Shown here: piece after piece, positions 2,433 to 45,563 of the stretch | Layout of the letters: each line of letters opens with the position of its first letter | Numbering within the stretch: position 1 is the first letter of the stretch | From: Planctomycetota bacterium | GTDB lineage: Bacteria > Planctomycetota > MHYJ01 > JACQXL01 | Reading direction: 5' to 3' | DNA length: 64,000 bases | Assembly (NCBI GenBank): GCA_043801445.1 | Contig: JAZDMB010000032.1 | Coordinates: 29,438 to 93,437, forward strand | Notes under the pieces: model-generated | Told to the model about the DNA's origin: nothing | What the model saw: only the letters and a program-made list of their open reading frames with translations | Databases searched by the model: none | Program-made: the position numbers and the translations under genes

Positions 2433-3809
2433 CTATTTACCTCCTATTGTTTTCTTAATCAATGCCACAGCCGTCTGGTAATCAAACGCAGCCTGAATAT
2501 GGCTGACCCGTGAATTCATTAAAGCCACCTGTGCATCTGTTAATTCTATAGACGACGCCTTGCCTATTTTATAACGTTCGTTAACCAGATTCAGATTCTC
2601 CTCGGCCTGCTGAACCGTCAATTGGGCAAGAGTTAAACGTTCTCCTGCTGATTCTAACTGCGCCACGGCACGGGTAAGATCCAAATAGATTCGTTGCTCC
2701 AGCTCAGCCCGAACGGCTCGAGTTGTCCTCAGATTAGCCACAGCCTTATCTATCTGATTAGTCTTCTGGAACCCGCTGAATATATTCCATCCGAGTGCGC
2801 TGCCTAAAGACCAATTCCAAACCAGCGGGAATTTACTGCCGCTCCAGCCATAACTGCCGTTAAGGGATAACGAAGGATACAAGTCGGCAATAGCCTGGTC
2901 CACCGCAGCTGAAGCACCGCGTTCCTGGGCAAGTTTGGCAACTAATTCCGGCTGGTTTTTCCGGGCAATCTTAATAAGTTTTTTAAAACTATGATTCTTA
3001 AATTCTTCCGGTGGCGGCTCCTGAACGATATAACCGGGGTCTTCAGCCAGACCCAGAGTATTATTAAGAACAGCCCGGGCTGTAGTCAAGGCGTTACGCG
3101 CATTAATCAGGTCAATCCGGGCGGTACCCAAATCAACCTTAGCCTTAGTAATGTCATATTTAATACGACGTCCCACATCGAACAAATTCTGGGTCTGCTC
3201 TAAATGAACCTGAAACTGATGCACCGTCTCTTCAGCCACCCGAACCAATGACTTTTGCTTGATTAGGTCATAGTAAGCCTGACGGGTATTATAAACGATA
3301 TTGTTCTCGGTTGATTTGAGCAGCGCTTCCGTGCTGAGTTTACTTTCGTAAGATTGCCTGATGGAGGCCGGTGTTTTACCGAAATCGTAGATTAGCTGGT
3401 CTAAAGAAACGCTGGCTGAATATGAATCGTTTGTCTTATTACTGGCTGAAGCGACTGTACTATTGCTGGTCCCTTGTCTATAACCGGCACTGGCGTTGAC
3501 AGACGGCAAATAGCCGGCAATAGAATCCTTGAATTGCTTGTCTGCTGACACCAGGCTTTGCCGCGCCTGAACGATTGAAGGATGATAAACCAATGCTATT
3601 TCCAGGGCACGGTTCAGGGAAAGCGGTACATCTTTACTCAGTCCAACCTCAGCCGCGGTAACCGTCCGTTCACCCGCTGAAATCTTTGAGATATCCTGCG
3701 CCTCGCGGGCTGAATGAACGGAAGAACAACCGGAAACTAAAAGGTAAAAAATAACAGAAAAGCAACTGATAATCGTCAGTTTTAGGTTCATCTTGTTTTT
3801 ACAGCTCAT
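2433..3809 (-). CDS. TolC-like outer membrane efflux protein (OEP family)
   Basis: 458 aa with a lipoprotein-type signal (LVSGCSS) and two OEP repeats of coiled-coil/beta-barrel character. It is the first gene of the OMP-adaptor-ATPase-permease operon. The likely start is the internal Met MNLKLTII. Confidence 0.85.
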   Translation of the reverse strand: MSCKNKMNLKLTIISCFSVIFYLLVSGCSSVHSAREAQDISKISAGERTVTAAEVGLSKDVPLSLNRALEIALVYHPSIVQARQSLVSADKQFKDSIAGYLPSVNASAGYRQGTSNSTVASASNKTNDSYSASVSLDQLIYDFGKTPASIRQSYESKLSTEALLKSTENNIVYNTRQAYYDLIKQKSLVRVAEETVHQFQVHLEQTQNLFDVGRRIKYDITKAKVDLGTARIDLINARNALTTARAVLNNTLGLAEDPGYIVQEPPPEEFKNHSFKKLIKIARKNQPELVAKLAQERGASAAVDQAIADLYPSLSLNGSYGWSGSKFPLVWNWSLGSALGWNIFSGFQKTNQIDKAVANLRTTRAVRAELEQRIYLDLTRAVAQLESAGERLTLAQLTVQQAEENLNLVNERYKIGKASSIELTDAQVALMNSRVSHIQAAFDYQTAVALIKKTIGGK

Positions 3810-4405: not shown

Positions 4406-7330
4406 ATGATGCGTTATTATTTTTATATCTTAATTATCTTGGTTGTTTTGGGCCAAGCAGGTTCTCTTTTTGCCGTTCCGGCGTGTCCCACCCCGTTTAC
4501 CGGCAAACAGCCGGACGGAAAAGAATTTAAAATACACCTCAAAGGTGATGAATGGACAAACTGGACAGAAACAGAGGATGGCTATCCTATAATTATTAAC
4601 AAAAACACGAGGTTCTGGGAATACGGAAAGATTGGGGTATCAAAAAAGCTGTCTCCAACCGGCCAAATCGTTGGAAAAGACGCGCCGGTCGGGATAAACA
4701 AAATATCGGCAAAAGATTTACCTGCCCGACTGGATATCCGGTCAGGCGGGCCCGGAAAAGGTTTCAGGACGCCTCGCCCGAACGCCGGAGGCGGGCAGGC
4801 TGGCGCTTCTTCTCCGACTTCTGAATCACCTCAATCCGCTCCGCTGAATATTATTGGCACACGCAAACTCCTGGTGATTTTAGTCGGTTTTGCTGATAAA
4901 AGTTTAACTACTACTGAAACAAGTTGGGTTGACAGGATTTTTGGAGCAACAAACAGCGCAAAGAAATACTATGATGAAGTTTCCTACAATCAATTTAACC
5001 TTGCTCCGGCTGAAGAAACATATGGCACAATAAATAACGGTATCGTTGTGGTAACTTTGACATCCAATCATCCCAATACCGGAGAGGACACAGACACCCG
5101 AAATCAGCAACTTACCAAAGATGCGATTATAGCGGCTGACCCTTATGTCAATTTTGCGTCCTTTGATAGTAATAGCGATGGAACAATTACAACAAATGAA
5201 CTGAATGTTATGATTATTGCCGCAGGTTATGAAACGGCTTATTCTACTTCATCCACGCCTTCAGTGTGGGCGCATAAATGGGCTATTGACGACATTACCG
5301 CTCCTATAGTGGATGGAAAAACCGTAGGTGCTTATCCGGGTGGTTATACTCAATTCGGTGAATTACATGGCACATCAGTTACTAACCATCAGGCAACCAT
5401 CGGGGTTATTATCCATGAATTTGCCCATGACTGCGGCAACGTCACTACTTACTTAGGATTACCTGACTTCTATGACACTGACAGTACCTCATACGGTATT
5501 GGATACTGGGATTCTATGGCGTCTGGTATGTGGCTACCTACCACAGGAAGTTATCAGGGCGACACGCCTTCTCATTTCAGCGCATGGTGTAAATGGTATT
5601 CAGGATGGGTTACACCAACCCGGATTACTGTTTCTACAAATGGTGTTTCTTTCCCGCAAGTTGAAACAGCCACCGGAGCAGACCACGGAATTAAACAGAT
5701 TTTGAGTAATCCAAACGGACCGGAAATTGGCGGCACCGGTGAATATTTCCTGATTGAAAACAGGCAGAAAACCGGTTATGATGCTGGCCTCCCAGCTGCG
5801 GGCATTCTGATATGGCATATTGATGAAACACAAAATGATAATGATACAGAGACGCGAAAACTTGTAGATTTAGAGGAAGCGGATGGTCTAACCCAGCTTG
5901 ATAATAAAATTAGTAAAGGAGACGCAGGCGACCCTTATCCGGCAACAACTACTAACAGAACATTCAATTATACTTCTAATCCAAATAGCAGACTTTATAG
6001 CGGCTCGGATAGTAATATGAGCGTTACAAATATCAGTGATTCCGGCGCAACAATGACAGCAGATATTAACAATAGCAATACAGACCAACCACCGGTACTG
6101 ACGTCGCCTGGGAATAAGAGTGTTGGCGAAAATGCCTTATTAACTTTTACGTTATCAGCCAGTGACCCGGATGGTGATACAATCAGTTATTCTATGGCAG
6201 GCACGCCGACCGGCTCAACCCTGAATTCCACGACGGGCGCATTTTCATGGACGCCAAACTACTTCCAATCAGGCGTTTATGCAATGACCTTTACCGCCAC
6301 GGCAAATAGCTTATCAGACTCCGAACCGATAAATATCACGGTAAATAATGTCGACCGGCCTCCGGCATTAACCTCGCCGGGTAATAAAAGCATCGATGAA
6401 AATCAGGTGTTAACCTTTACGCTATCCGCGACCGACCCGGATGGCGATACAATCAGTTATTCTATGGCAGGCACACCGACCGGCTCAACCCTCAATTCCT
6501 TGACAGGCGTATTTTCCTGGACGCCGAATTACTTCCAATCAGGCGTTTATCCGGTGACCTTTACCGCCACGGCAAATAGTTTATCAGACTCCAAATCGAT
6601 AACCATCACGGTAAATAATATCGACCGGTCTCCGGCATTAACCTCGCCGGGCAATAAAAGTATCGATGAAAATCAGGTGTTGACCTTTACGCTATCCGCA
6701 ACTGACCCGGATGGCGATACAATCAGTTATTCTATGGCAGGCACGCCGACCGGAACGACCTTGAATTCTGCTACCGGTATCTTCAACTGGACGCCGGATT
6801 ATACCCAGATAGGCATTTACAGTATTACTTTCACGGCAACATCCAATGTTTTATCTGATTCCAAAACCATAACCGTAACAGTATTACTGATACCGCCGGC
6901 TAACCTCACAGCTACCGCTATTTCATCTTATGCGATAAGACTCAACTGGACAGATACATCAATTAACGAAACCGGATTTAAGATAGAACGCAGTCCTGAC
7001 AATATTACCTTCACTCAAATTTCTATGGTCGGCTCCAATATAACCTCTACTCTTGATACAAATCTTTCTGCTGAGACTGATTATTATTACCGTATAAAAG
7101 CTTATAATAGTACGGGTAATTCCGACTATTCTAATGTAGTTTCGGCGACGACATTTGCTCTGATTTCAGCCGGTTCCAGCGGTAAAGGCAGCCACAAGGC
7201 ATTTTCTAAATGCGGTTGTTTGGGAATAGAACCATTATTAATTCTATTTCTTATCAGCCTGTTGGGAATCCGTAAATCGTTCAAGAAAAATAGTAGCCAC
7301 GAAGACACAAAGGCACTAAGAAGAAAGTAA
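4406..7330 (+). CDS. Secreted multidomain zinc metalloprotease (M6/InhA-like HEFAHDCG...LPDFYD) with three cadherin-like/He_PIG repeats, one FN3 domain and a C-terminal hydrophobic anchor
   Basis: Signal peptide MMRYYFYILIILVVLGQAGSLFA. HExxH motif VIIHEFAHDCGNVTTYLGLPDFYD resembles the immune-inhibitor-A M6 family. Three ~94-aa repeats contain DPDGDTISYSMAGTPTGSTLNS. FN3-like segment PPANLTATAISSYAIRLNWTD...YYYRIKAYNSTGNSDYS. C-terminal GIEPLLILFLISLLGIRKSFKK. The last ~12 codons (HEDTKALRRK) are encoded by the dispersed CACAAAG repeat. Confidence 0.85.
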   Translation: MMRYYFYILIILVVLGQAGSLFAVPACPTPFTGKQPDGKEFKIHLKGDEWTNWTETEDGYPIIINKNTRFWEYGKIGVSKKLSPTGQIVGKDAPVGINKISAKDLPARLDIRSGGPGKGFRTPRPNAGGGQAGASSPTSESPQSAPLNIIGTRKLLVILVGFADKSLTTTETSWVDRIFGATNSAKKYYDEVSYNQFNLAPAEETYGTINNGIVVVTLTSNHPNTGEDTDTRNQQLTKDAIIAADPYVNFASFDSNSDGTITTNELNVMIIAAGYETAYSTSSTPSVWAHKWAIDDITAPIVDGKTVGAYPGGYTQFGELHGTSVTNHQATIGVIIHEFAHDCGNVTTYLGLPDFYDTDSTSYGIGYWDSMASGMWLPTTGSYQGDTPSHFSAWCKWYSGWVTPTRITVSTNGVSFPQVETATGADHGIKQILSNPNGPEIGGTGEYFLIENRQKTGYDAGLPAAGILIWHIDETQNDNDTETRKLVDLEEADGLTQLDNKISKGDAGDPYPATTTNRTFNYTSNPNSRLYSGSDSNMSVTNISDSGATMTADINNSNTDQPPVLTSPGNKSVGENALLTFTLSASDPDGDTISYSMAGTPTGSTLNSTTGAFSWTPNYFQSGVYAMTFTATANSLSDSEPINITVNNVDRPPALTSPGNKSIDENQVLTFTLSATDPDGDTISYSMAGTPTGSTLNSLTGVFSWTPNYFQSGVYPVTFTATANSLSDSKSITITVNNIDRSPALTSPGNKSIDENQVLTFTLSATDPDGDTISYSMAGTPTGTTLNSATGIFNWTPDYTQIGIYSITFTATSNVLSDSKTITVTVLLIPPANLTATAISSYAIRLNWTDTSINETGFKIERSPDNITFTQISMVGSNITSTLDTNLSAETDYYYRIKAYNSTGNSDYSNVVSATTFALISAGSSGKGSHKAFSKCGCLGIEPLLILFLISLLGIRKSFKKNSSHEDTKALRRK
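6085..6900 (+). repeat. Three intragenic near-identical ~280-bp tandem repeats inside the metalloprotease gene
   Basis: DNA and protein identity are visibly >85% between copies. Confidence 0.9.
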
Positions 7331-7423: not shown

Positions 7424-7816
7424 ATGAACTTTGAACCATTATCAGATAGAGAAGAAGAAATAGGAAGCAAAGTTATTGATTCCGCTTATATCATCCATAA
7501 AACTCTTGGCGCCGGTTTATTGGAAAAGGTTTATGAAGTATGCTTTTGCCATGAACTTTCTAAGAGGGGGCTATCATATAAAAGACAAGTAGATATACCG
7601 ATAGTTTACGATGGAATAACTTTTGATGAAGGTTTAAGATTAGACGTACTTATTGAAAATTTAGTAATCTGTGAACTTAAAGCGGTAGATGAAACAAATC
7701 CGGTATGGGAAGCGCAACTATTAAGTCATTTGAAACTTATGAAAAAACGATTGGGTTTCTTGATAAACTTTAATGTTCCCGTTATCAAAGACGGTATTAA
7801 ACGAATAATATTATAG
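7424..7816 (+). CDS. GxxExxY family protein (PD-(D/E)XK nuclease-like fold)
   Basis: 130 aa; GAGLLEKVYEVCF motif and DVLIENLVICELKAV core are typical of the GxxExxY family. The same CACAAAG-type repeat flanks it on both sides. Confidence 0.8.
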   Translation: MNFEPLSDREEEIGSKVIDSAYIIHKTLGAGLLEKVYEVCFCHELSKRGLSYKRQVDIPIVYDGITFDEGLRLDVLIENLVICELKAVDETNPVWEAQLLSHLKLMKKRLGFLINFNVPVIKDGIKRIIL

Positions 7817-7883
7817 ATGTATTTCTTTGTGTCTTGGTGCCTTTGTGGCTAAATTTTATCTTTACAAAAGAAAGGTAAAGAGT

Positions 7884-8454: not shown

Positions 8455-8579
8455 TTGCCCGACTGGCAGGCGGGTCTGCGGTAAACCGTATTGTAAACTT
8501 TCACCACAAAGGCACAAAGAACACAAAGTATTTTTCTCTCTGCGTCTCTGCGGTGAACCTACCCGACTCGTCAGGCAGG
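8455..8579. repeat. Intergenic mosaic: two GC-rich palindromic elements (8455-8477, 8558-8579) flanking a CACAAAG/CTCTGCG heptad hairpin (8496-8556)
   Basis: CTTGCCCGACTGGCAGGCGGG; CACCACAAAGGCACAAAGAACACAAAG...CTCTGCGTCTCTGCGGTG; CCTACCCGACTCGTCAGGCAGG. Confidence 0.8.
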
Positions 8580-8761
8580 TTGTCCCACGGGGTAGTTACA
8601 CTCATTTTATTCAGATAGGACTTGACTTTTATAAAAGTTATTGGTATTTATAAGAAAACTTCGTAACCGCTGATTTGGCGGATTAGGCTGATATTATTAA
8701 TCTTAATCCGTTTAATCTGCATAATCCGCGGTTTCTTTTATACTTTTCTATACTCTAAAAT

Positions 8762-9253: not shown

Positions 9254-9531
9254 TGGCAAAAAAATGTCTCCGCCAAAGGCGGATCTGCCTCTGGCACAGG
9301 GTTGCAGGAAAAAGACTGCATCCGACTAATAAAATCAAACCCAACGAACATCTAAAGGAATACCTCAAAACCACGCCATTACAACGGCTTGAATGGCTGG
9401 AGCAAGCCAACAAATTCGTCTATGAAAACCACCTGGCAAAGATAGGAACCAAACCCGCCCGAACCTGCCCGAATGACCATTCGGTCGGGCGGGCGACCAT
9501 AGGGTCGGGCAGGCACGAAACCAAGAATTAA
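9253..9531 (+). CDS. Small basic hypothetical protein, start overlapping the NTase stop; the 3' end is encoded by GC-rich palindromic repeats
   Basis: ATGGCAAAAAAATG start overlaps the NTase stop. The C-terminal ~30 codons coincide with stacked CCTGCCCGA/GTCGGGCAGG palindromes, so the real extent is uncertain. Confidence 0.35.
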   Translation: MAKKCLRQRRICLWHRVAGKRLHPTNKIKPNEHLKEYLKTTPLQRLEWLEQANKFVYENHLAKIGTKPARTCPNDHSVGRATIGSGRHETKN

Positions 9532-9857: not shown

Positions 9858-10805
9858 CTATCCCCTCAGGACTACTACCTCAAATGTATTATCCGCTATA
9901 GCCGGTTGGTTCAGCAGGATTGAAATCCCTGTCCCTTGCGGTAGCCCCGGTAACAGGAATAGTTGTCTAATCAACTGGTCTTGATTCACAGGTATAGAGT
10001 AACCCAAAATCACACCGCCATTCAAATCAGGGTCACCCAAAGGCGGATATAGTCCGCCTACCTGTAATGCCGGAATCGTGATACTGATAACCTTGTAGGA
10101 TAATTTGGTTTTCGTCACCGCGCCGTTCTGGATTTTTTCCGTTGACACACTGTCTACTGCCAACTGACTACTGCCTACTGCGCCAGCCCCAATTTCATCT
10201 GTAGCCACCGGAGGCACCAATGGTCTTGATACACCGCCACCACCCGGAGCAATCCACTCAAATCTTTCCTGTGCCTGATTGTAAGAAGGGACTTCGCCAT
10301 TAGCCGGAGCATCGATTGCCCTGATATGTCTTGGCTCAACCGACCCGTTAATAATCTCCAGATAGCCCACCGAATTAGAAGCCAGTTTTACTTTAGTCAC
10401 TGAGTTAGTGGCAAGTTTATCGGCAGTAACAGCGCTTGCCTTTATCTTATCCGCAGTAATCGCGTTATTCTGGATTTTAGTTTCGGAAACCGCATTATCG
10501 GCAATTTCCACAGTTGCAACGGGCGGGGTCAAAGGTCTGCCCAGAACCCCATCACTGATTTTGTCTTTAGTGATAGTTCCGTCTGCGATTTTAATGCCCG
10601 TGATTGCACCGTCAATAATCTTGCTTGTAGATATTGAACGGTCAGCAATCTTCTCGCCCGTAACCTGCTTATCAGCAATCTTATCAGTCTTAACTGCCCC
10701 ATCCTTGATTTTGTTAGTCGTAACCGAATTATCAGCCAGTTTGGATTCGGTTACCGCATAAGATGCGATGTTTGGGGTTTTGACTTCATTTGGTTTTAAT
10801 GACAT
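9858..10805 (-). CDS. Repeat protein with about 20 copies of an 11-residue K-I-x-D-G-A-V-T-type repeat (beta-helix-like; tail-fibre-like or adhesin-like)
   Basis: Visible periodicity NKIKDGAVKTDKIADKQVTGEKIADRSISTSKIIDGAITGIKIADGTITKDKISDGV... followed by a non-repetitive C-terminal domain. Confidence 0.6.
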   Translation of the reverse strand: MSLKPNEVKTPNIASYAVTESKLADNSVTTNKIKDGAVKTDKIADKQVTGEKIADRSISTSKIIDGAITGIKIADGTITKDKISDGVLGRPLTPPVATVEIADNAVSETKIQNNAITADKIKASAVTADKLATNSVTKVKLASNSVGYLEIINGSVEPRHIRAIDAPANGEVPSYNQAQERFEWIAPGGGGVSRPLVPPVATDEIGAGAVGSSQLAVDSVSTEKIQNGAVTKTKLSYKVISITIPALQVGGLYPPLGDPDLNGGVILGYSIPVNQDQLIRQLFLLPGLPQGTGISILLNQPAIADNTFEVVVLRG

Positions 10806-11008
10806 ATAAATCTCCTTTTAGAGCCAGTTAGAATCCCGCTTTAGCGGGATGAGTTACAGGCTCTTATCCCGATGAGCATAGCGACATCGGGGTCTTTGCC
10901 ACAAAGCACACAAAGGACACAAAGTTAAGTGTTTTATTATGCTTCGTAGTTTATTTACTACAGCGTAGGGGCGGTTTTACCCGCCCCCACAATCTGTATA
11001 ATCTGTGG

Positions 11009-11821
11009 CTACACCGTTGACACCTGGATTTCCAGGAACATCTTACTATCCACCAGAATGTAGTCGCAATGACTATCTCCGCCTGTAGTGAATGGCTCAT
11101 ATGTTACGGAATCCTGCAAGCCCTTGATTATCGCATTAATGGCGTCGTTCTCTTTGGCAAAAGCCGCCGCAAGCATTTTGCTATCAAGGATAATCACGCC
11201 GCTTTTGGTCAGTTGCTGTGCCAGAGCCACCTTTAGGGCAGTTCTGGTATCAACCGTTGTGACTTGCGCCACATTGACCGGACCGCCTGATATGACTATA
11301 TCAGCTCCGCGGATATGACCCTCCGCAGTCGGCTCATCAGTCAGCCAGAGCGGAGCAATGCCGGACACCGATTTACCGATGGTTTTTTCCCCGGTAAAGG
11401 GCAATGACCGTTTTGCTACCCTGCTGACATACAGGTCAACCGCATTATCAACGCTTTCCTTGTAGCGTTTGCCGATTTCGCCGTCAATCTCCTCAAATGC
11501 CCGAAGCAACTTGGCTTCGTATTTATTGAAGGTGTTTAGGACGTTCTCGGCCTGGGTATTGACGATGTCATTCCGGGACTTACCGCTTCGTGACCTGAAG
11601 GTGGCAGACGGGAACGGTGCATAACCTTCACTGGATGGTCCGCCCAGTTTAAGTTTGTAAGCCATTTCGTCCGGTATGATAAGTTTCCGTTTCATATCAA
11701 TTACCTCTGCCTTGTTCTTCAGACCGTCACGCCAGCCGTTGCTCATATGTTCCGGGATTGTGGTTAAATCCAGCGGCACGAACAACCTCACTTTACTTAC
11801 TATTGTTGACATTTTTCTCAC
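11009..11821 (-). CDS. Hypothetical protein (270 aa; size fits an HK97-fold capsid or encapsulin-like shell protein, but no supporting motif was found)
   Basis: Clean ORF with repeat elements on both sides. No recognisable catalytic motif. Confidence 0.5.
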   Translation of the reverse strand: MRKMSTIVSKVRLFVPLDLTTIPEHMSNGWRDGLKNKAEVIDMKRKLIIPDEMAYKLKLGGPSSEGYAPFPSATFRSRSGKSRNDIVNTQAENVLNTFNKYEAKLLRAFEEIDGEIGKRYKESVDNAVDLYVSRVAKRSLPFTGEKTIGKSVSGIAPLWLTDEPTAEGHIRGADIVISGGPVNVAQVTTVDTRTALKVALAQQLTKSGVIILDSKMLAAAFAKENDAINAIIKGLQDSVTYEPFTTGGDSHCDYILVDSKMFLEIQVSTV

Positions 11822-11858: not shown

Positions 11859-11990
11859 CCCGCCTGACTGGCGCCAGTCGGGCAGGTGCGCGCATCGTTT
11901 GGTTTGTTTCACCACAAAGAACACAAAGGTCACAAAGAATTTCTCTGTGTGCTCTGTGTCTCTGTGGCAAAGATTACTTGCTGAGCCAGT
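11859..11990. repeat. GC-rich palindromic element (CCCGCCTGACtggcgccaGTCGGGCAGG) plus heptad hairpin (CACAAAG x3 / CTCTGTG x3)
   Basis: Read directly from sequence. Confidence 0.8.
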
Positions 11991-12375
11991 GTCTGAGTTT
12001 CCTGATTCCAATTGCATAGAGTTCCAAGACCCTGTTTGTGCTGATACCCACAGCCAGTGCGGTGTAATTAACCGAGCGCCTGTAAGAGGCAATCTCCATA
12101 ACTACTTCCGCCTCTATTTGGCTCACGATTCCGCCTTCTACTGCTTCTAAAAGAGTGGACGAACCCATATAGTTCCGAAGTTCCTTGTTTGTCTCTGGAA
12201 CAGCGGGCGGAATGGCTGGCTCCGCTTCCGGGGCGGGCATCACTGCACCTGCCCTAATGATTTCTTCTAACATGGTTTTTCTCCATCTCTGCCACTGAGA
12301 CACAGAGTCCACAGAGGACTTAGTGTCTTTGTGTCTTGGTGGCTGTTTAAGGTGTTCATATCTATTGTCCTCCAA
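11974..12375 (-). CDS. Small sigma-70 region-4-like HTH protein
   Basis: C-terminal IEAEVVMEIASYRRSVNYTALAVGISTNRVLELYAIGIRKLRHWL resembles sigma region 4 / LuxR-type HTH. The N-terminal ~35 codons of the track ORF are encoded by a CACAGAG/CTTTGTG repeat, so the true start is probably the Met near 12270 (MLEEIIRAG). Confidence 0.55.
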   Translation of the reverse strand: MEDNRYEHLKQPPRHKDTKSSVDSVSQWQRWRKTMLEEIIRAGAVMPAPEAEPAIPPAVPETNKELRNYMGSSTLLEAVEGGIVSQIEAEVVMEIASYRRSVNYTALAVGISTNRVLELYAIGIRKLRHWLSK

Positions 12376-12544
12376 AATACATAAGGTGAATTGTCGCAGG
12401 TTGGCTGATATTATTTTTGCATGATTTGGCTAATTTGCCTTAACCCCAGTATTGGCAAGCAATTTGAGCCAAAGAATTTTTGAGGAATTTTTGGAATGCG
12501 CTGATTTTAGCCGAATGATTTGGAACTAGTTCCCTCTTTTGGGC

Positions 12545-12875
12545 TCATAAGGTGCGTCCTTCAGCGATATACCCTATGTCCTTATGAATAAAACCGTATG
12601 TCCTTTTGGAATAAACCCAATGTCCCTTTGTTATAAACCCTACGTCCTTATGAAATAAACGATATGTCCTTCTGTTTCAAACGGTATGTCCTTTTGGAAT
12701 AAATCGTATGCCCTTTTATTTCAAATCCTATGTCCTTTTGGAACAAATCGTATGTCCTTTTGTTCTAAAAAGTGTGTCCCTTTAGAATAAATCCAACGTC
12801 CTTATATAACAAACGATATGTCCTTTTATAATAAACGGTATGTCCTCTTGGGAAACACCCTATCCAGCGTGGGAA
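12545..12875. repeat. Direct tandem array of ~13 x 22-bp units (consensus TATGTCCTTTTGGAATAAATCG), iteron-like
   Basis: Units abut with no spacers. The TATGTCC core is conserved and the 3' half is variable. Confidence 0.9.
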
Positions 12876-12982
12876 TAATACCTACTACCTCTTAGATAAC
12901 ATGGGGTATCCCCTGCCAGTAGGGGGGTGGGGGTAAACCAAGGGTAATTGGGTGATTAGGATATTAGGAAATCAGTGGGGAA

Positions 12983-13654
12983 TTAGGGAATTGGGAAGGG
13001 TTCGGGTTCTTCGTCGTCCGGGATATTATCTATGTCGTGCTTCCATTCGTCCGGGTTATAGGCCTTTAACTGGAACTTGGTCTTGTAGGTGTAGGCTTCG
13101 GAATAGGGATGGAACGGGTCTTCGGCAAGCCCGAAGAACGTCTTGAGTTTCTGACGCAGTCCGTAGATTGACTTCTTGGTGCGTGAAATCTCTTTGGCTG
13201 AGTATTTATCGGTATGAATGATACTGGATTTGCCTATCATTTCCGTGGATTCCGAGTCGTCATCATCACCATCTGCGTTCCAGCGGTGCTTGATTCTGCC
13301 GCCCTTGCGCCAAGGGAGTTCGCCGTCGTGCTCTGCCAGCCGTTGCAGTAGTTTCCAGTGCCGGTCAGGGCTCAGCCGGCTCTTGCGGAGTTTATCGTAG
13401 CAATCTAATTCTACGAAATTGACCTTACGGGGCTTGGGCATAACGTTGCGGATTGAAATCAGGGCGTATGTCTCGCTCAGTTTAATAACAATATCTTGCC
13501 AGTTAGTTCCGGTCGGAAGTGGGAATTTGGGCGTTCTGATAGCGGAGAGAACCGGCGCCTGTGCCTTGAACCCGGAAAGGAACGAGATAATCTGGTCTAA
13601 TTTACGGTTGATAGACTGTAAACATTCATTATCAATATTGTCTTTGGAGGACAT
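12983..13654 (-). CDS. Hypothetical acidic protein (223 aa, DGDDDDSES patch)
   Basis: Starts 8 bp after the stop of the DUF4238-like gene, so likely co-transcribed. No recognisable domain. Followed by the 22-bp tandem array. Confidence 0.6.
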   Translation of the reverse strand: MSSKDNIDNECLQSINRKLDQIISFLSGFKAQAPVLSAIRTPKFPLPTGTNWQDIVIKLSETYALISIRNVMPKPRKVNFVELDCYDKLRKSRLSPDRHWKLLQRLAEHDGELPWRKGGRIKHRWNADGDDDDSESTEMIGKSSIIHTDKYSAKEISRTKKSIYGLRQKLKTFFGLAEDPFHPYSEAYTYKTKFQLKAYNPDEWKHDIDNIPDDEEPEPFPIP

Positions 13655-13662
13655 AATTATTT

Positions 13663-14628
13663 CTATTTAGAATTAGGTGTCGTATCAACGAAATTCTCTG
13701 ATATATTAAAATAAGGTTTTATATTATCTTTAATGAACTCAGAATCAGTAGAAGAATAGATGCATTCATTAGCCCACATTAATGTTCTATTATTAAATAT
13801 TTTAACATTTTCAGGGGGTAATGGAATGACACTTGGTTTTTTATACCAAGTTAACATCAAACAAATACTGGGACATAACGGGATAGTTATTTCAATATCT
13901 TTTTGAGCAATCCCATAACCGTACGGACTATTCTGGAGTTTCGGATTAAATAAAACAAAAGGATTATCAGAGGTTATAAAGGGATGCTCGTCAAGCGTTG
14001 CTAGATAGGAAAAATTCATACGAGCAATCTTATTTACCAAACTCATATCTTGGCCTAAAGTAACCATGGCTCTAAGGTGGGGAATATTGTTAACAGAAAT
14101 ATTATATTTTTTACTTAGTGCAAATTGTCTCAGATTTTCCACCTCACCTGGTTTATTGCCGACATCTATTTTAGCTTTCTTTATCGTATTCTCAAAAAGT
14201 GTTTTATCTGAGGCAACCATTAATGTTGCCTTCTTAATTACATCCTTTATAAACACATTAATATTTTCTCTCATATCAGGCGTTCTTAGAAACAGATACA
14301 AAAGAAAATACGCCAGGTCGGTTTTTTCCTGATTAGATAGGCGGACAGGATTTCTGAGGATTTTCTTTATGACATTGAAAGCTCCGCTTTCTATTCGCGC
14401 AAGAATTGTTTCTAAATCTCTATTTGGCCTGTCTTCTTTATCTTTTACGGTATAGAACTCTTTCTGAACGGCAACATTTATTAGATTCGCCCGAAAAGGT
14501 TTTCTCTGGCGGTGAAAAACCCAGATTGCGTCAGTAATTCTCTTGTTTTTATCGGGAATACAAAAATTCTTAAGATAGAATTGCGGAATAGTATGCTGTC
14601 TTTTAGTGTTATTATTTGATGTTCCCAT
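13663..14628 (-). CDS. DUF4238-like protein
   Basis: N-terminal KRQHTIPQFYLKNF resembles the conserved H-x-V/I-P-Q-F-Y-L motif that opens DUF4238 proteins. 321 aa. Confidence 0.6.
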   Translation of the reverse strand: MGTSNNNTKRQHTIPQFYLKNFCIPDKNKRITDAIWVFHRQRKPFRANLINVAVQKEFYTVKDKEDRPNRDLETILARIESGAFNVIKKILRNPVRLSNQEKTDLAYFLLYLFLRTPDMRENINVFIKDVIKKATLMVASDKTLFENTIKKAKIDVGNKPGEVENLRQFALSKKYNISVNNIPHLRAMVTLGQDMSLVNKIARMNFSYLATLDEHPFITSDNPFVLFNPKLQNSPYGYGIAQKDIEITIPLCPSICLMLTWYKKPSVIPLPPENVKIFNNRTLMWANECIYSSTDSEFIKDNIKPYFNISENFVDTTPNSK

Positions 14629-14710
14629 ACTTATTTTTGTTCGGAATTATGTATTGCGTTATCAGAATTATTCAGTTATTACCACATTAATATTTTGATT
14701 GCTCTCGCCA

Positions 14711-15079
14711 TTATTCATCTTTCCGTATAAATGAATTGATTTCATCAGAAACTGTATCCAAAATAATAAGTAAGATTACTACTAATCCCATTAGTGATAA
14801 CCCAATAGGATAGATTATATTCCTTATCGGTTTTATCTCTTTCTCTGGGAATATACTAATAATCAAAGATAACACAACTAAACTTGCTAAAGCAAAAATG
14901 TCCCCCTTAAGGAACCAACCTATTAAACGGATAGAATCGCTTTCGTAATGAATTGTCTTACATATTGGACAGGTCTGATATCTATGAGTAACTGATACAT
15001 GTTTATCGTCAGTCCCTTCCCATTTATGCTTACATCGCTTACATTCTAATAATCTTAGTGTTTCCATAAAACCTCCCAT
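14711..15079 (-). CDS. Small membrane protein with N-terminal CxxC...CxxC zinc ribbon and two TM helices
   Basis: CKRCKHKW...CPICKTIH, then two hydrophobic helices (IFALASLVVLSLIISIF and IGLSLMGLVVILLIIL). Lies 82 bp upstream of, and co-directional with, the DUF4238-like gene. Confidence 0.55.
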   Translation of the reverse strand: MGGFMETLRLLECKRCKHKWEGTDDKHVSVTHRYQTCPICKTIHYESDSIRLIGWFLKGDIFALASLVVLSLIISIFPEKEIKPIRNIIYPIGLSLMGLVVILLIILDTVSDEINSFIRKDE

Positions 15080-15133
15080 CTAATAAAAAAGTTTCTCGCG
15101 GGACAGTGGCGCTAAATCCTCCGCTTAATCCGT

Positions 15134-16177
15134 TTAATCCTGTGTAGTCGCAACGGAGTCCCGATTATTTCGGGGTTGTTTTATTCCTTCAAGTTCGCCG
15201 AGTTTATCGCGCGCTTCGGCATAGTCGGGTTGAATCCGAATCGCCTCTTTGAAGCATTCCATCGCTTTCTGGTTATCGCCCCGAAGTTCTTCGGGACTCC
15301 GCTTCGCTTCGCCGGTTTGTTCATAGGCCACGCCCAGATTAAAGTGCGCTATGGCAAGGTCAGGTTCAATATAAATCGCCTCGTTATAGCATTCTATCGC
15401 TTTTTGATGCTCGCCTATTTTCCCATACATAAAACCGAGATTATTATGCGCCTCGGCATGGGCAGGTTTAAGCCGAATCGTTTTTTCAAAGCATTCTATC
15501 GCTTTCTGATAATCGCCGGCTTCCCCATATATACGGCCAAGATTACAGAGCATCTCGTCATCGTTGGGGTCAAGCCGAGTCGCCTCTTTGAGGCATTCTA
15601 TGGCTTTCTGGTTATCGCCTGTTTTCATATAGGCAAAACCAAGGCTACAGTGTGCCAGGGCATAGTCAGGTTTAAGCCGAATTGCCTCTTTATAGCATTC
15701 CATCTCTTTCTGATAATCGCCTGTTTTCCAATACGCCACGCCTAGATTATAGTGCGCTATGGCATTGTCAGGTTTAAGCCGAATCGCCTCTTTATAGCAT
15801 TCTATCGCTTTTTGATTATCACCCCCGCCTGAACAGCCGGGTTGGGCAGGTGTTTTATCATACAGAAGACCAAGACCATAGTATGCATCGGCATTGTCAG
15901 GTTTAATCCGAATCGCCTCTTTGAGGCATTCTATCGCTTTCGGATTATCACCTATTTTCCCATAGATACGACCAAGGTTACAGTGTGTATCGGCCAGGTC
16001 AGGTTTAATCCGAATCGCCTCCTTAAAGCATTCTATCGCTTTCTGATAATCACCTGTTTTCGCATACAGAACACCAAGACTACAGTGTGCATCGGCATAG
16101 TTAGGTTTAAGCCGGATTGTCTTCTTAAGGGATTCTATAGATGCTTCTATAAGTACATTTTTCATAACGGCCTCCAA
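15134..16177 (-). CDS. TPR repeat protein with about 9 near-perfect 34-aa repeats
   Basis: Repeated QKAIECxKEAIRxKPDxAxAHxNLGxxYxKxGDY. C-terminal PRNNRDSVATTQD is encoded by a TCCCGATTATTTCGGGA palindrome. Confidence 0.85.
   Translation of the reverse strand: MEAVMKNVLIEASIESLKKTIRLKPNYADAHCSLGVLYAKTGDYQKAIECFKEAIRIKPDLADTHCNLGRIYGKIGDNPKAIECLKEAIRIKPDNADAYYGLGLLYDKTPAQPGCSGGGDNQKAIECYKEAIRLKPDNAIAHYNLGVAYWKTGDYQKEMECYKEAIRLKPDYALAHCSLGFAYMKTGDNQKAIECLKEATRLDPNDDEMLCNLGRIYGEAGDYQKAIECFEKTIRLKPAHAEAHNNLGFMYGKIGEHQKAIECYNEAIYIEPDLAIAHFNLGVAYEQTGEAKRSPEELRGDNQKAMECFKEAIRIQPDYAEARDKLGELEGIKQPRNNRDSVATTQD
15230..16140 (-). repeat. Intragenic 102-bp tandem repeats (TPR units)
   Basis: Near-identical 34-codon units repeated ~9 times. 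Confidence 0.85.
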
Positions 16178-16296
16178 ATTCTATAATCCAGTAATCCGTT
16201 TATTCTTATCCATAATTCTTCGTGTTCTTTTAGCGCCATAAGCCCAGTAGGTCGGCACCAGTGGTTAATCCTATTTCGTCAACCGTTTAATTCTCT

Positions 16297-26856: not shown

Positions 26857-28194
26857 ATGACAGGAAAAAATCAGGTGTTGATGGTTTTGCTATCTCTATT
26901 TATTATTTTTGGTTTTATTTCATTGTCCCTGGTTGAAGCCAAATCCAAAGAAGAAGTCTATCAGGAAAAACTTGCTCAGGTAAAAGAGGGAGATCTTAGG
27001 GGGTATTTTGATTTGGGTCTATGGTGCCAGCAGAATAAATTAGATGCTCAAGCCAAAGAGATGTTTGAGAAGATTATTGCATTGAATCCTGACCATTTCG
27101 GAGCCAGAGATAAATTAGGTTATGTTAAATACAAAAACCAATGGATTAAAAAAGATGAAATAGCCAAAGTAGATTATGAAGAAAAACTCACCAAATTAAA
27201 GGATGATGATACTAAAGGATTTTATGAATTAGGTCTATGGTGCCAGCAGAATAAATTAGAGACTCAAGCCAAAGAGATGTTTGAGAGGGTTATTGCGCTG
27301 GACCCTGAGCATACCGGAGCCAGAGAGAAATTAGGTTACATTAAATATAAAAACAAATGGATTAAAAAAGGCGAGGAAACTAAAGCTGATTATGAGGAAA
27401 AACTCGCCAAATTAAAAGATGATGATGTTGAAGGACATTATGGATTGGGTTGTTGGTGTAAGGAAAAGAAACTGTTCTATGAAGCCCGTGACGAATTTGA
27501 AAAGGCGGTTAAATTAGATGCTAATCACCAAAAGGCGCAAAAAGAACTGGAACTTATCACTCAACAGTTATCACCTACAGGTTTTCTCAAGAGGCCAATG
27601 GATAACTATAAGACTCATTACTGTGCGAATGTTCCCAAGCAATACGATTCAAAAAAGAAATGGCCGCTTATCATAGGTTTGCATGGCACAGGCGGGACAG
27701 GCGACATGTTCCTCAGACGGCGCTGGGAACAAATAAGTAATGAAAAAGGTTACTTGGTTATCGCACCTAGATCACCAGGTAACAATTGGGATATAAAAGA
27801 TGAGGATTTCGTAATGGCATGTCTGGATGATTTCAAAAAGGATTACCAGATTGATACATCCAGAATCTATTTAACAGGTTTCTCGGGCGGTGCATCTATG
27901 GCTTTACTTTTCGGCATGAATAATTTTCAGAAATTTGCCGCCCTGGCGATGGTAGGCGGAGGCGAACAAACAGGCCCTATTAGCCCAAATACCGTGGTAT
28001 TACCATTATACTTTTTAGTAGGCGAGAAAGACCAGAGCACCAAAGGTGTAGTAAAGCCGGTTACTGAACAATTGGAACAACAGGGATTTAGCGTTAAATA
28101 CGAAGAAATGCCTAATATAGGACTTGACTGGCCTGATGATACATCAAGCAAAATAATCAATTGGTTTGAATCATTACTATCTGCGGAAAAGTAA
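26857..28194 (+). CDS. Secreted alpha/beta-hydrolase (esterase / PHB-depolymerase-like; GFSGG nucleophile elbow) with 2.7 N-terminal 72-aa repeats
   Basis: Signal/TM at the N-terminus. Repeats YFDLGLWCQQNKLDAQAKEMFEKIIALNPDHFGARDKLGYVKYKNQWIKK. C-terminal LIIGLHGTGGTGDMF...IYLTGFSGGASMAL. Confidence 0.75.
   Translation: MTGKNQVLMVLLSLFIIFGFISLSLVEAKSKEEVYQEKLAQVKEGDLRGYFDLGLWCQQNKLDAQAKEMFEKIIALNPDHFGARDKLGYVKYKNQWIKKDEIAKVDYEEKLTKLKDDDTKGFYELGLWCQQNKLETQAKEMFERVIALDPEHTGAREKLGYIKYKNKWIKKGEETKADYEEKLAKLKDDDVEGHYGLGCWCKEKKLFYEARDEFEKAVKLDANHQKAQKELELITQQLSPTGFLKRPMDNYKTHYCANVPKQYDSKKKWPLIIGLHGTGGTGDMFLRRRWEQISNEKGYLVIAPRSPGNNWDIKDEDFVMACLDDFKKDYQIDTSRIYLTGFSGGASMALLFGMNNFQKFAALAMVGGGEQTGPISPNTVVLPLYFLVGEKDQSTKGVVKPVTEQLEQQGFSVKYEEMPNIGLDWPDDTSSKIINWFESLLSAEK
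26965..27540 (+). repeat. Intragenic 216-bp tandem repeats (2.7 copies) in the esterase gene
   Basis: GLWCQQNKL...KEMFE...GYVKYKNQWIKK repeated. Confidence 0.85.
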
Positions 28195-44352: not shown

Positions 44353-44883
44353 AGGAAAAGTTAACCACTCCCGACAAAGTCTGTCGGGATCCCGTTGTAG
44401 CCCACTTGGATAGCCCAGCGGGAAAAGACATTCACCCCGTTAGAAATTATTGTTACAGGGTAATGATAAGAATAATATAAAGTTTGTTAGTGTAATACTA
44501 TTTATTTTAGATATTTATTTCTTCGGATGCAGTCTTCTTCTTGCTACCCTGTGCCATAGGCACCTGCCCGACCGTCAGGCGGGGATCCGCCTCTGGCGGA
44601 AACGAGGCAGGGCACTCAAAGGATTAAAACTATTTTTTTTCCTTGACGCCCCAGCGGACTAGCAGACAGGTTTATCTGTTCATCAGTTTACTCACTTTCT
44701 ATCTCTACAACTGGATATAAGTAACGGGTTTGTGACTTATCCGGCAGATATGAAAAATGGCGGTTTTGTATAAACTCTTGATTTGAAATGAATTAAGAAA
44801 AATAAAAAAATATGCAAAAATCCGAAAATAGCGCTCTCTGTTACTTATGGGAACCTATCCACTACGGGATTCTACCCTACCTA

Positions 44884-45062
44884 CCTATGGTTATATGGGG
44901 TATATCCACTAGTTAGTAGGGATACCTCCTATGGTTATACGGGATACCTCCTATGGTTATATGGGATACTACCTATGGTTATATGGCATACTCCCTATGG
45001 TTATATGGGATACCACCTATGGTTATTAGGGATACTACCTATGGTTATATGGGATACCTCTA
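44884..45062. repeat. Direct tandem array A, ~8 x 22 bp (GGGATACCTCCTATGGTTATAT)
   Basis: Read directly from sequence. Bounded by CCCTACCTACC (44874-44884) and its inverse GGTAGGTAGGG (45088-45098). Confidence 0.9.
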
Positions 45063-45139
45063 CTGGAGGGTACGATATCCCCCCTGGGTAGGTAGGGTAA
45101 TATAGGGGGGAGGTAGGGGGATGGGTAATTTTCTTATTT

Positions 45140-45462
45140 TTATCAGGGCTATATTTCTCGGCAGTCGGGTATATGTTCCTTGGATTGGCAGGATATGTTT
45201 CCGGGCTGAAAGGCATCTGTTTCGTGGCTCAATGGTGTATGTTTCCCGGCTCAAAGGCGTATATTTCCGTGCCGAAAGGGGTATGTTTATTACTGATAAC
45301 TAGTATGTATCCCGGCTCAGAGGGGTATGTATTTTGGCTTAACCCTCTATGTTTCTTGGGTATAAGGTATATATTTCAGGACTAAAGAGGGTATATTTCT
45401 TGGCTTAGGGGAGTATGTTTATTGGCTCAAGGGGATATGTTTCGTGGCTTGGAGGTATGTGA
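45140..45462. repeat. Direct tandem array B, ~14 x 22 bp (GGCTCAAAGGGGTATGTTTCNT)
   Basis: Read directly. Ends in GGGATACCCTACCCCCCACCACCCC. Confidence 0.9.
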
Positions 45463-45534
45463 TGGGATACCCTACCCCCCACCACCCCTATATACTATAT
45501 ACTATGTTCTATATACTGAATTTCAATTTTCCAC

Positions 45535-45563
45535 TTGACAGATTATAAATGCAAGAGTATATT
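45535..45563 (+). promoter_or_regulatory. Sigma70-like promoter (TTGACA-N17-TATATT) for the 45618 gene
   Basis: Consensus -35, 17-nt spacer, good -10. Sits 55 bp upstream of the ATG, with GGAGG RBS at 45607. Confidence 0.5.

Follow-up and report, generated by a model that had tools for sequence, protein, structure and literature searches.

A lineage-restricted family of 22-bp repeat arrays with G- or C-run heads in Planctomycetota

Anatomy of the array locus

The 64,000-nucleotide stretch of a Planctomycetota contig analysed here (JAZDMB010000032.1, assembly GCA_043801445.1), hereafter the window, contains a tandem array of 22-bp units, termed array A, that fills the gap between two minus-strand genes. 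On the gene strand, the stop codon of a 223-aa open reading frame (ORF) is followed by a C-run head with CTACTGGCAGGGGATACCCC, 14 repeat units, a leader of ~190 bp, a hairpin similar to repetitive extragenic palindromic (REP) elements, a small ORF, a 270-aa ORF and a 315-aa fibre-like ORF. The true non-coding gap spans approximately 12274–12982, since homologues of the small ORF start at an internal ATG (12273) and not at TTG; the GC content is 0.32–0.38 over array A and the leader. Array A is one copy of a lineage-restricted non-coding modular family in an uncultivated Planctomycetota/Brocadiia clade. An element of this family consists of a G- or C-run head and approximately 6–17 (typically ~14) asymmetric 22-bp units. 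The chromosomal position of the copy described here is conserved, and directly downstream of it come a conserved leader and an orphan operon of three genes.

Array A (12553–12860, minus strand) comprises 14 head-to-tail units of 22 bp, as judged by Tandem Repeats Finder (TRF), core spacing, register and information content. TRF reported a period of 22 with 12.5 copies at 12575–12850. The matches to the TATGTCC core, with at most two mismatches allowed, fall at 12553, 12575 and onwards to 12839, every step being exactly 22 bp and the 14 units containing no insertions or deletions (indels). This agrees with the first-pass annotation of the window, which had counted about 13 abutting copies at 12545–12875. 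The consensus is AAAAGGACATACGGTTTATTAC on the minus strand, with a plus-strand reading that begins TATGTCCTTTT, and the mean pairwise identity of the units is 0.67. Two degenerate units (12861–12904, minus strand) keep the 22-bp phase in the register listing and join the array to the head. A lag-22 self-similarity scan of the 64-kb window detected 12443–12975 and 44754–45553 and no third region. We rejected a coding repeat, as no ORF runs through array A and the period is not a multiple of three, and also an array of clustered regularly interspaced short palindromic repeats (CRISPR), as the units abut and have no spacers.

The G-run head module (12895–12982, plus strand; C-rich on the gene strand) was delineated from the sequence and from the alignment with the related loci L001, L005, L019, L021, L002 and L010. 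It includes the G-rich end that had been noted before at 12895–12960 and extends beyond it. The head core GGGGTATCCCCTGCCAGTAGGGGGGTGGGGG at 12903–12933 contains the palindrome GGGGTATCCCC (12903–12913); near-identical versions of it occur in array A, L001, L005, L019 and L021, and the cores of L002 and L010 can be recognised as related. The G-runs extend into the 3' end of the 223-aa ORF, with a run of the G-quadruplex (G4) type at 12977–13006. The window has four such runs, compared with ~0.14 in shuffled sequences, and two of the four are located at the two array loci. A scan of one genome per species with the head 20-mer CTACTGGCAGGGGATACCCC yielded three Planctomycetota contigs and one chance match in Mycolicibacterium, and a metagenome scan re-found L005 and L006 and nothing further.

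The leader (12376–12552, minus strand) separates array A from the small ORF and was defined in an alignment of five lineages. It contains the block AAAATAAT (plus strand ATTATTTT, 12410–12417), invariant in all five, and the near-invariant block GCGACAATTCACCTTATGTAT at 12377–12397. Array A is situated about 150–460 bp upstream of the AAAATAAT block. At the junction of the array and the leader lies a palindrome, GGAACTAGTTCC (12522–12533), identical in the window and L001; its letters change and its symmetry is kept in L005 (AGTTCACATAGTGAACT), in L002, and in L010 (GGTCATAAATGACC). The first-pass annotation had also listed five occurrences of TTGGC or GCCAA at 12380–12540. A cluster of four is present, compared with 0.34 expected per 161 bp, but the fifth, TAGCCGAATG, does not match, and one other segment of the window has four occurrences as well. 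Relatives do not retain the pentamers at the aligned positions, in contrast to the surrounding leader, which is conserved; we therefore regard the cluster as weak and rejected TTGGC as a functional motif.

Copies of the element and constraint on its units

The second locus of the window, at 44.86–45.49 kb, is composed of two arrays, B1 and B2, with a G-run block between them and a C-run block at the close. Array B1 (44857–45060, minus strand; TRF and register) has 8–9 units of 22 bp with the minus-strand sequence TCCCATATAACCATAGGTAGTA, a unit that resembles the boundary units of other arrays. It is bracketed by inverted C-rich and G-rich arms at 44873–44890 and 45082–45099 (inverted repeat I1, 18 nt, 89% complementary). 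The central G-run module between B1 and B2 (45075–45127, plus strand; sequence GGGTAGGTAGGGTAATATAGGGGGGAGGTAGGGGGATGGG), recognised by sequence and alignment, contains a G4 motif at 45086–45125. Array B2 (45148–45457, minus strand; TRF and register) has 14 units of exactly 22 bp, reading TATGTTTCnnGGCTnAAAGG on the plus and AAGAAACATACCCCTTTAAGCC on the minus strand, and its minus-strand unit is close to the unit AAAGACATACCGTTTAAGACCA of L021 and to the unit type of array A. The C-run module that closes B2 (45463–45490, plus strand; GGGATACCCTACCCCCCACCACCCC) is an inverted partner of 45105–45118 (I5, 14 nt, 86% complementary). The inverted-repeat search found no such partner for the head of array A. 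A promoter scan detected a sigma-70-type promoter-like site, a consensus match only (45535–45563, plus strand; TTGACA-17-TATATT, 11/12). It follows the final unit of B2 at a distance of 78 bp and precedes by 55 bp the ATG start codon of a 376-aa ORF that is nearly an orphan.

According to the first-pass annotation, the head of array A is the same module as 45088–45127. The style is indeed common to both (GATATCCCC, GGGTAGG, G-runs, GGGTAATT), but the modules of the B locus align poorly. Its more general proposal, that the two array loci belong to one modular family with a variable 22-bp array and a G-rich end, is supported by head-plus-array homologues in relatives: further copies exist, and the array is conserved. 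We found no description of these arrays in the literature searched.

The same layout, i.e. a G/C-run head, an array of 12–17 units, a ~190-bp leader, the small ORF, the 270-aa ORF and the fibre-like ORF, is shared by at least five related lineages of Planctomycetota, where it occupies the syntenic position on the chromosome. The orthologous slot holds a 22-bp array in the window, L001, L002, L004/L005/L006 and L010, with flanking proteins that are 68–88% identical. In this gap there are ~12 units of GAAGGGACATACGGTTCAAGAC in L001, ~15 units of GAGGACGGTCAGYATATCGTAT in L002, ~15 units of AAGGACGGTCAGYATATCGCAT in L004/L005/L006, and ~16 units of GAGGACACCCGGTATATCTATT in L010, which lies on a 596-kb contig. 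The unit sequence has turned over at this slot (AAGGACATAC, GGACGGTCAG, GGACACCCGG), and the 22-bp period and the copy number of 12–17 have been retained. The order of two tetratricopeptide repeat (TPR) genes (TPR453 and TPR347), variable cargo, the optional 223-aa ORF, the array and the operon is common to the window, L001, L002, L009 and L010. The 223-aa gene is found beside the array in four of the five orthologous lineages and is absent in L010; since L010 nevertheless has the array, the latter goes with the leader and the operon rather than with the 223-aa gene. The difference in gap length between L004 (3311–4263) and L005 (3311–4130) could have been taken for copy-number variation, a possibility rejected on account of an N-filled scaffold gap. 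Groundwater assemblies from the same population break or are N-padded inside the array (contig ends of L003, L006, L007 and L008; L004 versus L005), and thus the arrays cause contig fragmentation in these metagenome-assembled genomes (MAGs).

At least six other Planctomycetota contigs have head-plus-array homologues, and some genomes have two of them. L019, the second locus in the MAG that contains L001, has a head and ~7 units located ~210 bp upstream of the aspartate-semialdehyde dehydrogenase gene (asd). A convergent gene for a sigma-54-type regulator has its 3' end next to the L021 element, which consists of a head and ~15 units, the last two of which are the same as in array A. The window has no orthologues of the genes flanking L019 or L021. 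L096 and L098, two loci with paralogues of the 270-aa gene from two MAGs, have the G-run heads GGTGGGGGAGGGGGTATGGTGGGGGGTAG and GGGGGAGGGGGGAGGGTGGGGGGTAG, respectively, followed by a 22-bp array of another unit type, a type III restriction-modification cassette, the 270-aa paralogue and a fibre gene; L096 and L010 belong to one MAG. In L012 a 12-unit array with a G-run block lies 4 kb from its operon, and in L016 a degenerate 22-bp periodicity surrounds a G-run block just upstream of the 270-aa gene. In these four 270-aa/fibre paralogue loci (L096, L098, L012 and L016) the head and the array are found within 7 kb. Nine of the ten loci of the 270-aa/fibre family that we examined have a head and an array, the exception being L014. 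Most arrays (12 of 13) lie 70–500 bp upstream of a gene transcribed away from the array.

Unit types of different arrays are related variations on one theme. In eight arrays from six genomes we counted 421 substitutions relative to each array's own consensus and no phase-breaking indels, the core-to-core distances always being 22 bp or a multiple of it. The substitutions are distributed non-uniformly along the unit in divergent arrays (p=0.001 for A, 0.006 for B2, 0.003 for L021 and 0.003 for L010). In diverged arrays, with a unit identity of 0.60–0.67, the core RGGAC / ACATAC and a short T-run (TTT) are spared, and the spacer positions vary. The arrays of L002 and L005 have a unit identity of 87–88%.

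Possible roles of the arrays

The anatomy and the conservation of the arrays are solid. As to their function, we infer that this lineage-specific family consists of phased arrays that bind protein and act in cis, upstream of promoters, a tentative reading to which we assign a probability of approximately 0.45. The array would work at the DNA level, each unit providing one binding site composed of a conserved core of ~8–10 bp and a short T-run. Since there is one site per two helical turns, the sites would lie on the same face of the helix, and a sequence-specific DNA-binding protein could load head-to-tail over ~300 bp to form an extended or wrapped nucleoprotein complex. Such a complex could control the adjacent promoter by silencing, insulation or activation, and the G-run head and the palindrome at the opposite end could serve as boundary, nucleation or accessory sites. 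Candidate binders are the product of the small ORF, the 270-aa paralogues, each with the unit type of its own locus, or a factor encoded elsewhere. A non-coding array of ~300 bp has been retained at the orthologous site, with its period and copy number preserved, even as the identity of the flanking proteins fell to 68–88%, and this argues for function. Also in favour are the strict phase, the uneven spread of substitutions along the unit and the association with the 270-aa/fibre gene pair. The position upstream of promoter-like regions (the leader of array A, and the 11/12 sigma-70 site after B2) fits a DNA-level mechanism. Within one genome, L010 and L096 combine different unit types with different 270-aa paralogues, a hint that array and paralogue may be cognate.

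Several observations weigh against protein-binding arrays of this kind. Unequal crossing-over can hold a repeat period without selection, and a location upstream of a gene, seen for 12 of 13 arrays, does not significantly exceed the expectation for intergenic DNA. The gap of array A has no site matching the strict sigma-70 promoter consensus, the L021 copy has no downstream gene, and the strand of the head relative to the unit direction differs between loci. The cores differ between arrays of one genome (A versus B1 versus B2; L010 versus L096), and therefore one protein cannot bind all arrays. The helix-turn-helix (HTH) similarity of the small ORF is below threshold, the AlphaFold2 (AF2) model of the 270-aa protein has no recognisable DNA-binding fold, and the model of the 223-aa protein is unusable, with a predicted local distance difference test score (pLDDT) of 40. 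The single co-varying residue of the small ORF product, a T or P preceding the putative recognition helix, follows the phylogeny and is therefore not independent evidence.

We also speculate, as a distinctly less likely possibility, that the arrays are the cognate cis-sites of a new multi-copy chromosomal module. It would comprise the 270-aa protein, the fibre-like protein with its variable C-terminus and sometimes a small HTH protein, and would lie beside a hypervariable slot with defence cargo. Each paralogue would have its own array specificity, as in Rep-iteron or ParB-parS pairs, and the array could nucleate a novel type of nucleoprotein filament, made by the 270-aa family or by a partner protein, that organises, silences or mobilises the cassette region. 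Phased binding-site arrays are well understood on plasmids and phages but hardly known as conserved multi-copy chromosomal features, and DNA-level regulation and chromosome organisation in Planctomycetota are almost unexplored. The arrays described here are tied to a large orphan family (211 unannotated representatives) and lie beside a defence-gene hotspot. A cognate binder, if found, would define a new protein–DNA recognition system and provide a functional handle on the 270-aa/fibre pair. Should the elements be selfish, they would represent a new class of modular repeat in bacteria, one that would serve for strain typing and account for the assembly breaks in these MAGs.

The latter explanation holds that the element is a modular interspersed repeat, selfish or neutral and akin to BOX elements or to MITEs (miniature inverted-repeat transposable elements), in which terminal G/C-run modules surround an expanding 22-bp minisatellite and which spreads or persists with no function for the host, the period being kept by slippage and unequal crossing-over. 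We consider it unlikely, though by no means implausible. The arrays are dispersed in multiple copies over unrelated intergenic sites (three arrays in the two window loci, L019 upstream of asd, L021 by the sigma-54 regulator gene, and L096 and L098 upstream of restriction-modification genes), many contigs break at the array, and the high unit identity in L002 and L005 points to recent homogenisation. The architecture parallels BOX, where tandem boxB modules, variable in number, stand between boxA and boxC and where effects on the expression of neighbouring genes were reported (PMC3049150), the latter being a regulatory parallel. The BOX elements of Streptococcus pneumoniae and tandem-repeat-containing MITEs are dispersed intergenic composites of terminal modules and variable tandem internal modules (PMC3049150; PMC3879986), and the inverted G/C-rich arms that bracket both B1 and B2 add to this likeness. 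In contrast to these elements, the units here are 22 bp long, strictly phased and conserved in a position-specific manner; the terminal modules are G-run heads rather than boxA/boxC modules of ~50 nt, and no stable RNA fold is predicted. Moreover, one copy has been kept at an orthologous locus across genera despite the bacterial deletion bias, copies per genome are few as far as seen, and even old arrays (unit identity 0.60–0.67) have zero indels. Arrays A, B1 and B2 share only a short core, and such strong divergence between the copies of one genome gives no hint of recent transposition. A transposase gene is absent from the vicinity, neither target-site duplications nor near-identical copies are evident at the loci examined, and the head of array A has no inverted partner. 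Alternatively, the array could act as RNA, being a long 5' leader, a 3' extension of the 223-aa gene or a separate transcript, whose ~14 A(A/G)GGAC motifs bind or titrate an RNA-binding protein in the manner of CsrB/RsmZ sponges. CsrB-like sponges are comparable in size and motif density and need little stable structure. The GGA cores on the gene strand (AAGGACAUAC, GAGGACGG, GGGAAACAUA) are found in most unit types, ~14 times over ~300 nt, and most arrays are co-oriented with the downstream gene. Nevertheless, an RNA role is improbable. The units of L019 and L021 lack GGA (AAGAYATAC), the head strand varies between loci, and a sponge would not need strict, indel-free 22-bp spacing. There is no promoter-like site upstream of the head and no terminator-like site downstream; the fold z-scores (-0.12 for the minus, gene strand and -2.1 for the plus strand) give no convincing structure; Rfam 15 has no matches at the gathering score in the whole window, and no csrA-type gene was seen in it.

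Two further explanations relate the array to mobility of the region. According to one of them, the repeats and the G-run head mark the edge of a hypervariable slot that exchanges defence and other cargo, so that the element would be a hotspot of recombination or a landing pad. Variable cargo adjoins all array-bearing loci of the 270-aa family, a 16-bp motif, CTTAATCCGTTTAATC, recurs at boundaries, and G-runs able to form quadruplexes initiate recombination, e.g. at Neisseria pilE. However, no recombinase is encoded nearby, the cargo lies on either side of the array at a variable distance, the association may just reflect a shared permissive intergenic region, and the strict phasing and the conserved core are left unexplained; we would give this explanation little chance. 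The other was put forward in the first-pass annotation, to which the array looked like a plasmid- or phage-style origin or partition site. The array would then be of iteron type, or centromere-like, and belong to an island at ~8.4–15.1 kb that is integrated or can be excised. Several features agree with it: the geometry of asymmetric 22-bp direct repeats upstream of an operon with a small, possibly DNA-binding protein first is iteron- or parC-like, the tail-fibre-type repeats give the operon a phage flavour, CTTAATCCGTTTAATC forms a perfect direct repeat at 8702 and 15124 near the proposed island ends, and there is defence-type cargo with a GC dip at 14–15 kb. A spacing of ~22 bp, two helical turns, is classic for iterons, of which R6K gamma ori has seven and pPS10 four, both of 22 bp. 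As in plasmid iterons, the repeats here are head-to-tail with a conserved core and a variable remainder, and relatives differ in unit sequence but keep the period. Centromere-like repeat arrays are also known from partition loci of types Ib, II and III (R1 parC, pSK41 parC, tubC, F sopC); similarly to these, array A is immediately upstream of an operon, probably overlapping its control region, and is long enough for a wrapped or filamentous nucleoprotein complex. The differences are more substantial. That annotation itself stated, correctly, that no rep or par gene is adjacent: searches of Pfam, NCBIfam, PHROG and PADLOC found no Rep, ParA, ParM, TubZ, integrase, relaxase or terminase among the neighbours. 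The ORFs from 7.4 to 16.2 kb match no Rep-type family of Pfam, NCBIfam or PHROG, the neighbours being orphan families, and the 270-aa and 315-aa products match no NTPase motor (ParA, ParM, TubZ) in Pfam or NCBIfam; the operon is not recognisably par. There is no DnaA box within ~400 bp, the nearest TTATCCACA-like site (one mismatch) being at 11759 and the window-wide count of 23 being at the level of chance (18.5); neither is there a distinct AT-rich unwinding block, nor a tRNA in the tRNA scan of the window. Unlike iterons, which number 3–7, the arrays have ~14 units, are capped by G/C-runs, and show no DNA or protein match in 72,556 plasmid and 50,697 phage records. Several arrays with differing unit types occur per chromosome, some beside housekeeping genes and some without the operon. 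The motif CTTAATCCGTTTAATC also recurs at other gene boundaries in relatives, and its two copies therefore do not qualify as a unique att pair. In several lineages the module keeps synteny with conserved TPR genes, and thus it is at a conserved chromosomal position, only the adjoining cargo being accessory. An origin or partition site of an accessory island is therefore highly improbable.

Neighbouring genes and other repeats

The small ORF (11974–12273, minus strand), the first gene of the operon downstream of array A, encodes 99 aa from the homologue-supported ATG (MLEE...). The version in the ORF list has 133 aa and a TTG start, which is a wrong frame start according to the alignment of five homologues. 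Two of the homologues have sub-threshold Sigma70_r4/GerE matches (E 0.003–0.02), and comparison with sigma-E by hhalign was not significant (E 0.4); a C-terminal HTH of the sigma-70-region-4/LuxR type is possible. The 270-aa-family gene (11009–11812, minus strand; 267 aa as annotated in the source MAG) encodes an orphan helical protein of a family that is multi-copy per genome, with several paralogues in single MAGs. It has 19 close homologues, all from Planctomycetota/Brocadiia (MAGs and groundwater metagenomes), and 211 representatives at E<=0.001 in a profile search (50% identity representatives). Two long members of the family carry an N-terminal trypsin-like protease domain, and the SGKS motif of the 270-aa protein is not conserved across the wider family. 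The protein has no PDB match, and its AF2 model (pLDDT 77, helical) has no Foldseek match in PDB or BFVD. The third gene (9858–10805, minus strand; 315 aa) encodes a protein with tail-fibre-type repeats, as indicated by PHROG tail-fibre matches. All-against-all BLASTP demonstrated that the fibre-like third genes are homologous at all loci, with the N-terminal ~200–235 aa conserved and the C-terminus variable. A partial match of the fibre-like protein to PADLOC PD-Lambda-5_A (E 2.5e-6) covers the repeat region only. The 223-aa ORF (12983–13654, minus strand), whose stop abuts the head module, belongs to an orphan family with 11 members. Pfam, NCBIfam, PHROGs and PADLOC contain no match to the small, the 223-aa or the 270-aa product, and PDB sequence-profile searches with the three protein families yielded nothing meaningful.

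The cargo that borders the loci includes DUF4238 (a PADLOC DUF4238-Pers match) and a zinc-finger membrane protein in the window, NOV_C, Mrr and PIN in L001, DUF1016 in L002 and L006, DUF3800 in L009, and type III restriction-modification genes in L096 and L098. The cargo slot occupies 13663–15079 in the window, 1153–3762 in L001, 3684–5105 in L009, 1547–7506 in L096 and 3231–9496 in L098, and GC falls to 0.33 at 14–15 kb of the window. The 16-bp motif CTTAATCCGTTTAATC was found at 8702–8717, 15124–15139 and 16190–16205 of the window, at 3522 and 6179 of L010, 4487 and 5101 of L009, and 1721 of L002, all of them gene boundaries in the variable neighbourhood; the two copies in L009 have opposite orientations and lie on either side of one gene of 180 aa. 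The motif could mark cassette boundaries, serve as a site of recombination or be terminator-like. The segment 8762–9531 (plus strand), at the module's far end, encodes a nucleotidyltransferase-fold protein of 163 aa with weak AbiEii/DUF2204-type matches, followed by an overlapping 92-aa ORF, a pair that looks toxin-antitoxin-like.

Other repeats occur in and around the operon. The REP-like hairpin between the leader and the small ORF (12291–12343; GCCACTGAGACACAGAG...CTTTGTGTCTTGGTGGC), in the 5' untranslated region of the latter, is an inverted repeat (I2) with 17-nt arms. It has counterparts, intergenic or 5' untranslated, at 11938–11974, 7824–7858, 8494–8520 and 10900–10924; the pattern of this hairpin family is GCCACnGAGACACAGAG ... 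CTCTGTGTCTC..GTGGC, with CACAAAG repeats, and similar elements are present in L001 and L002. GC-rich hairpin-like segments at 44541–44620 and 9475–9514 (GCACCTGCCCGACCGTCAGGCGGGG...) and a 20-bp repeat, GACCATACGGTCGGGCAGGC, present twice, may represent another small repeat family. In L010, but not in the window, 4.3 copies of a 10-bp repeat (GTTACAAGAG, 7809–7851) separate the small ORF from the 270-aa gene. A scan of viral contigs for a periodic RGGRC pattern returned 72 loci, all generic, unrelated and uninformative. These IMG/VR contigs (L022–L093) contain many unrelated 11- or 22-bp arrays, e.g. ~6 units of ATGGGGGACGTTTTGACAAGTC in several of them, so that arrays with a 22-bp period are a common feature of viral DNA at large. 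The window also has coding tandem repeats with periods of 270, 102/204 and 216 bp (6140–6753, 15327–16138 and 27009–27426, respectively), which encode TPR and other repeat proteins and are ordinary long-period repeats unrelated to the 22-bp arrays.

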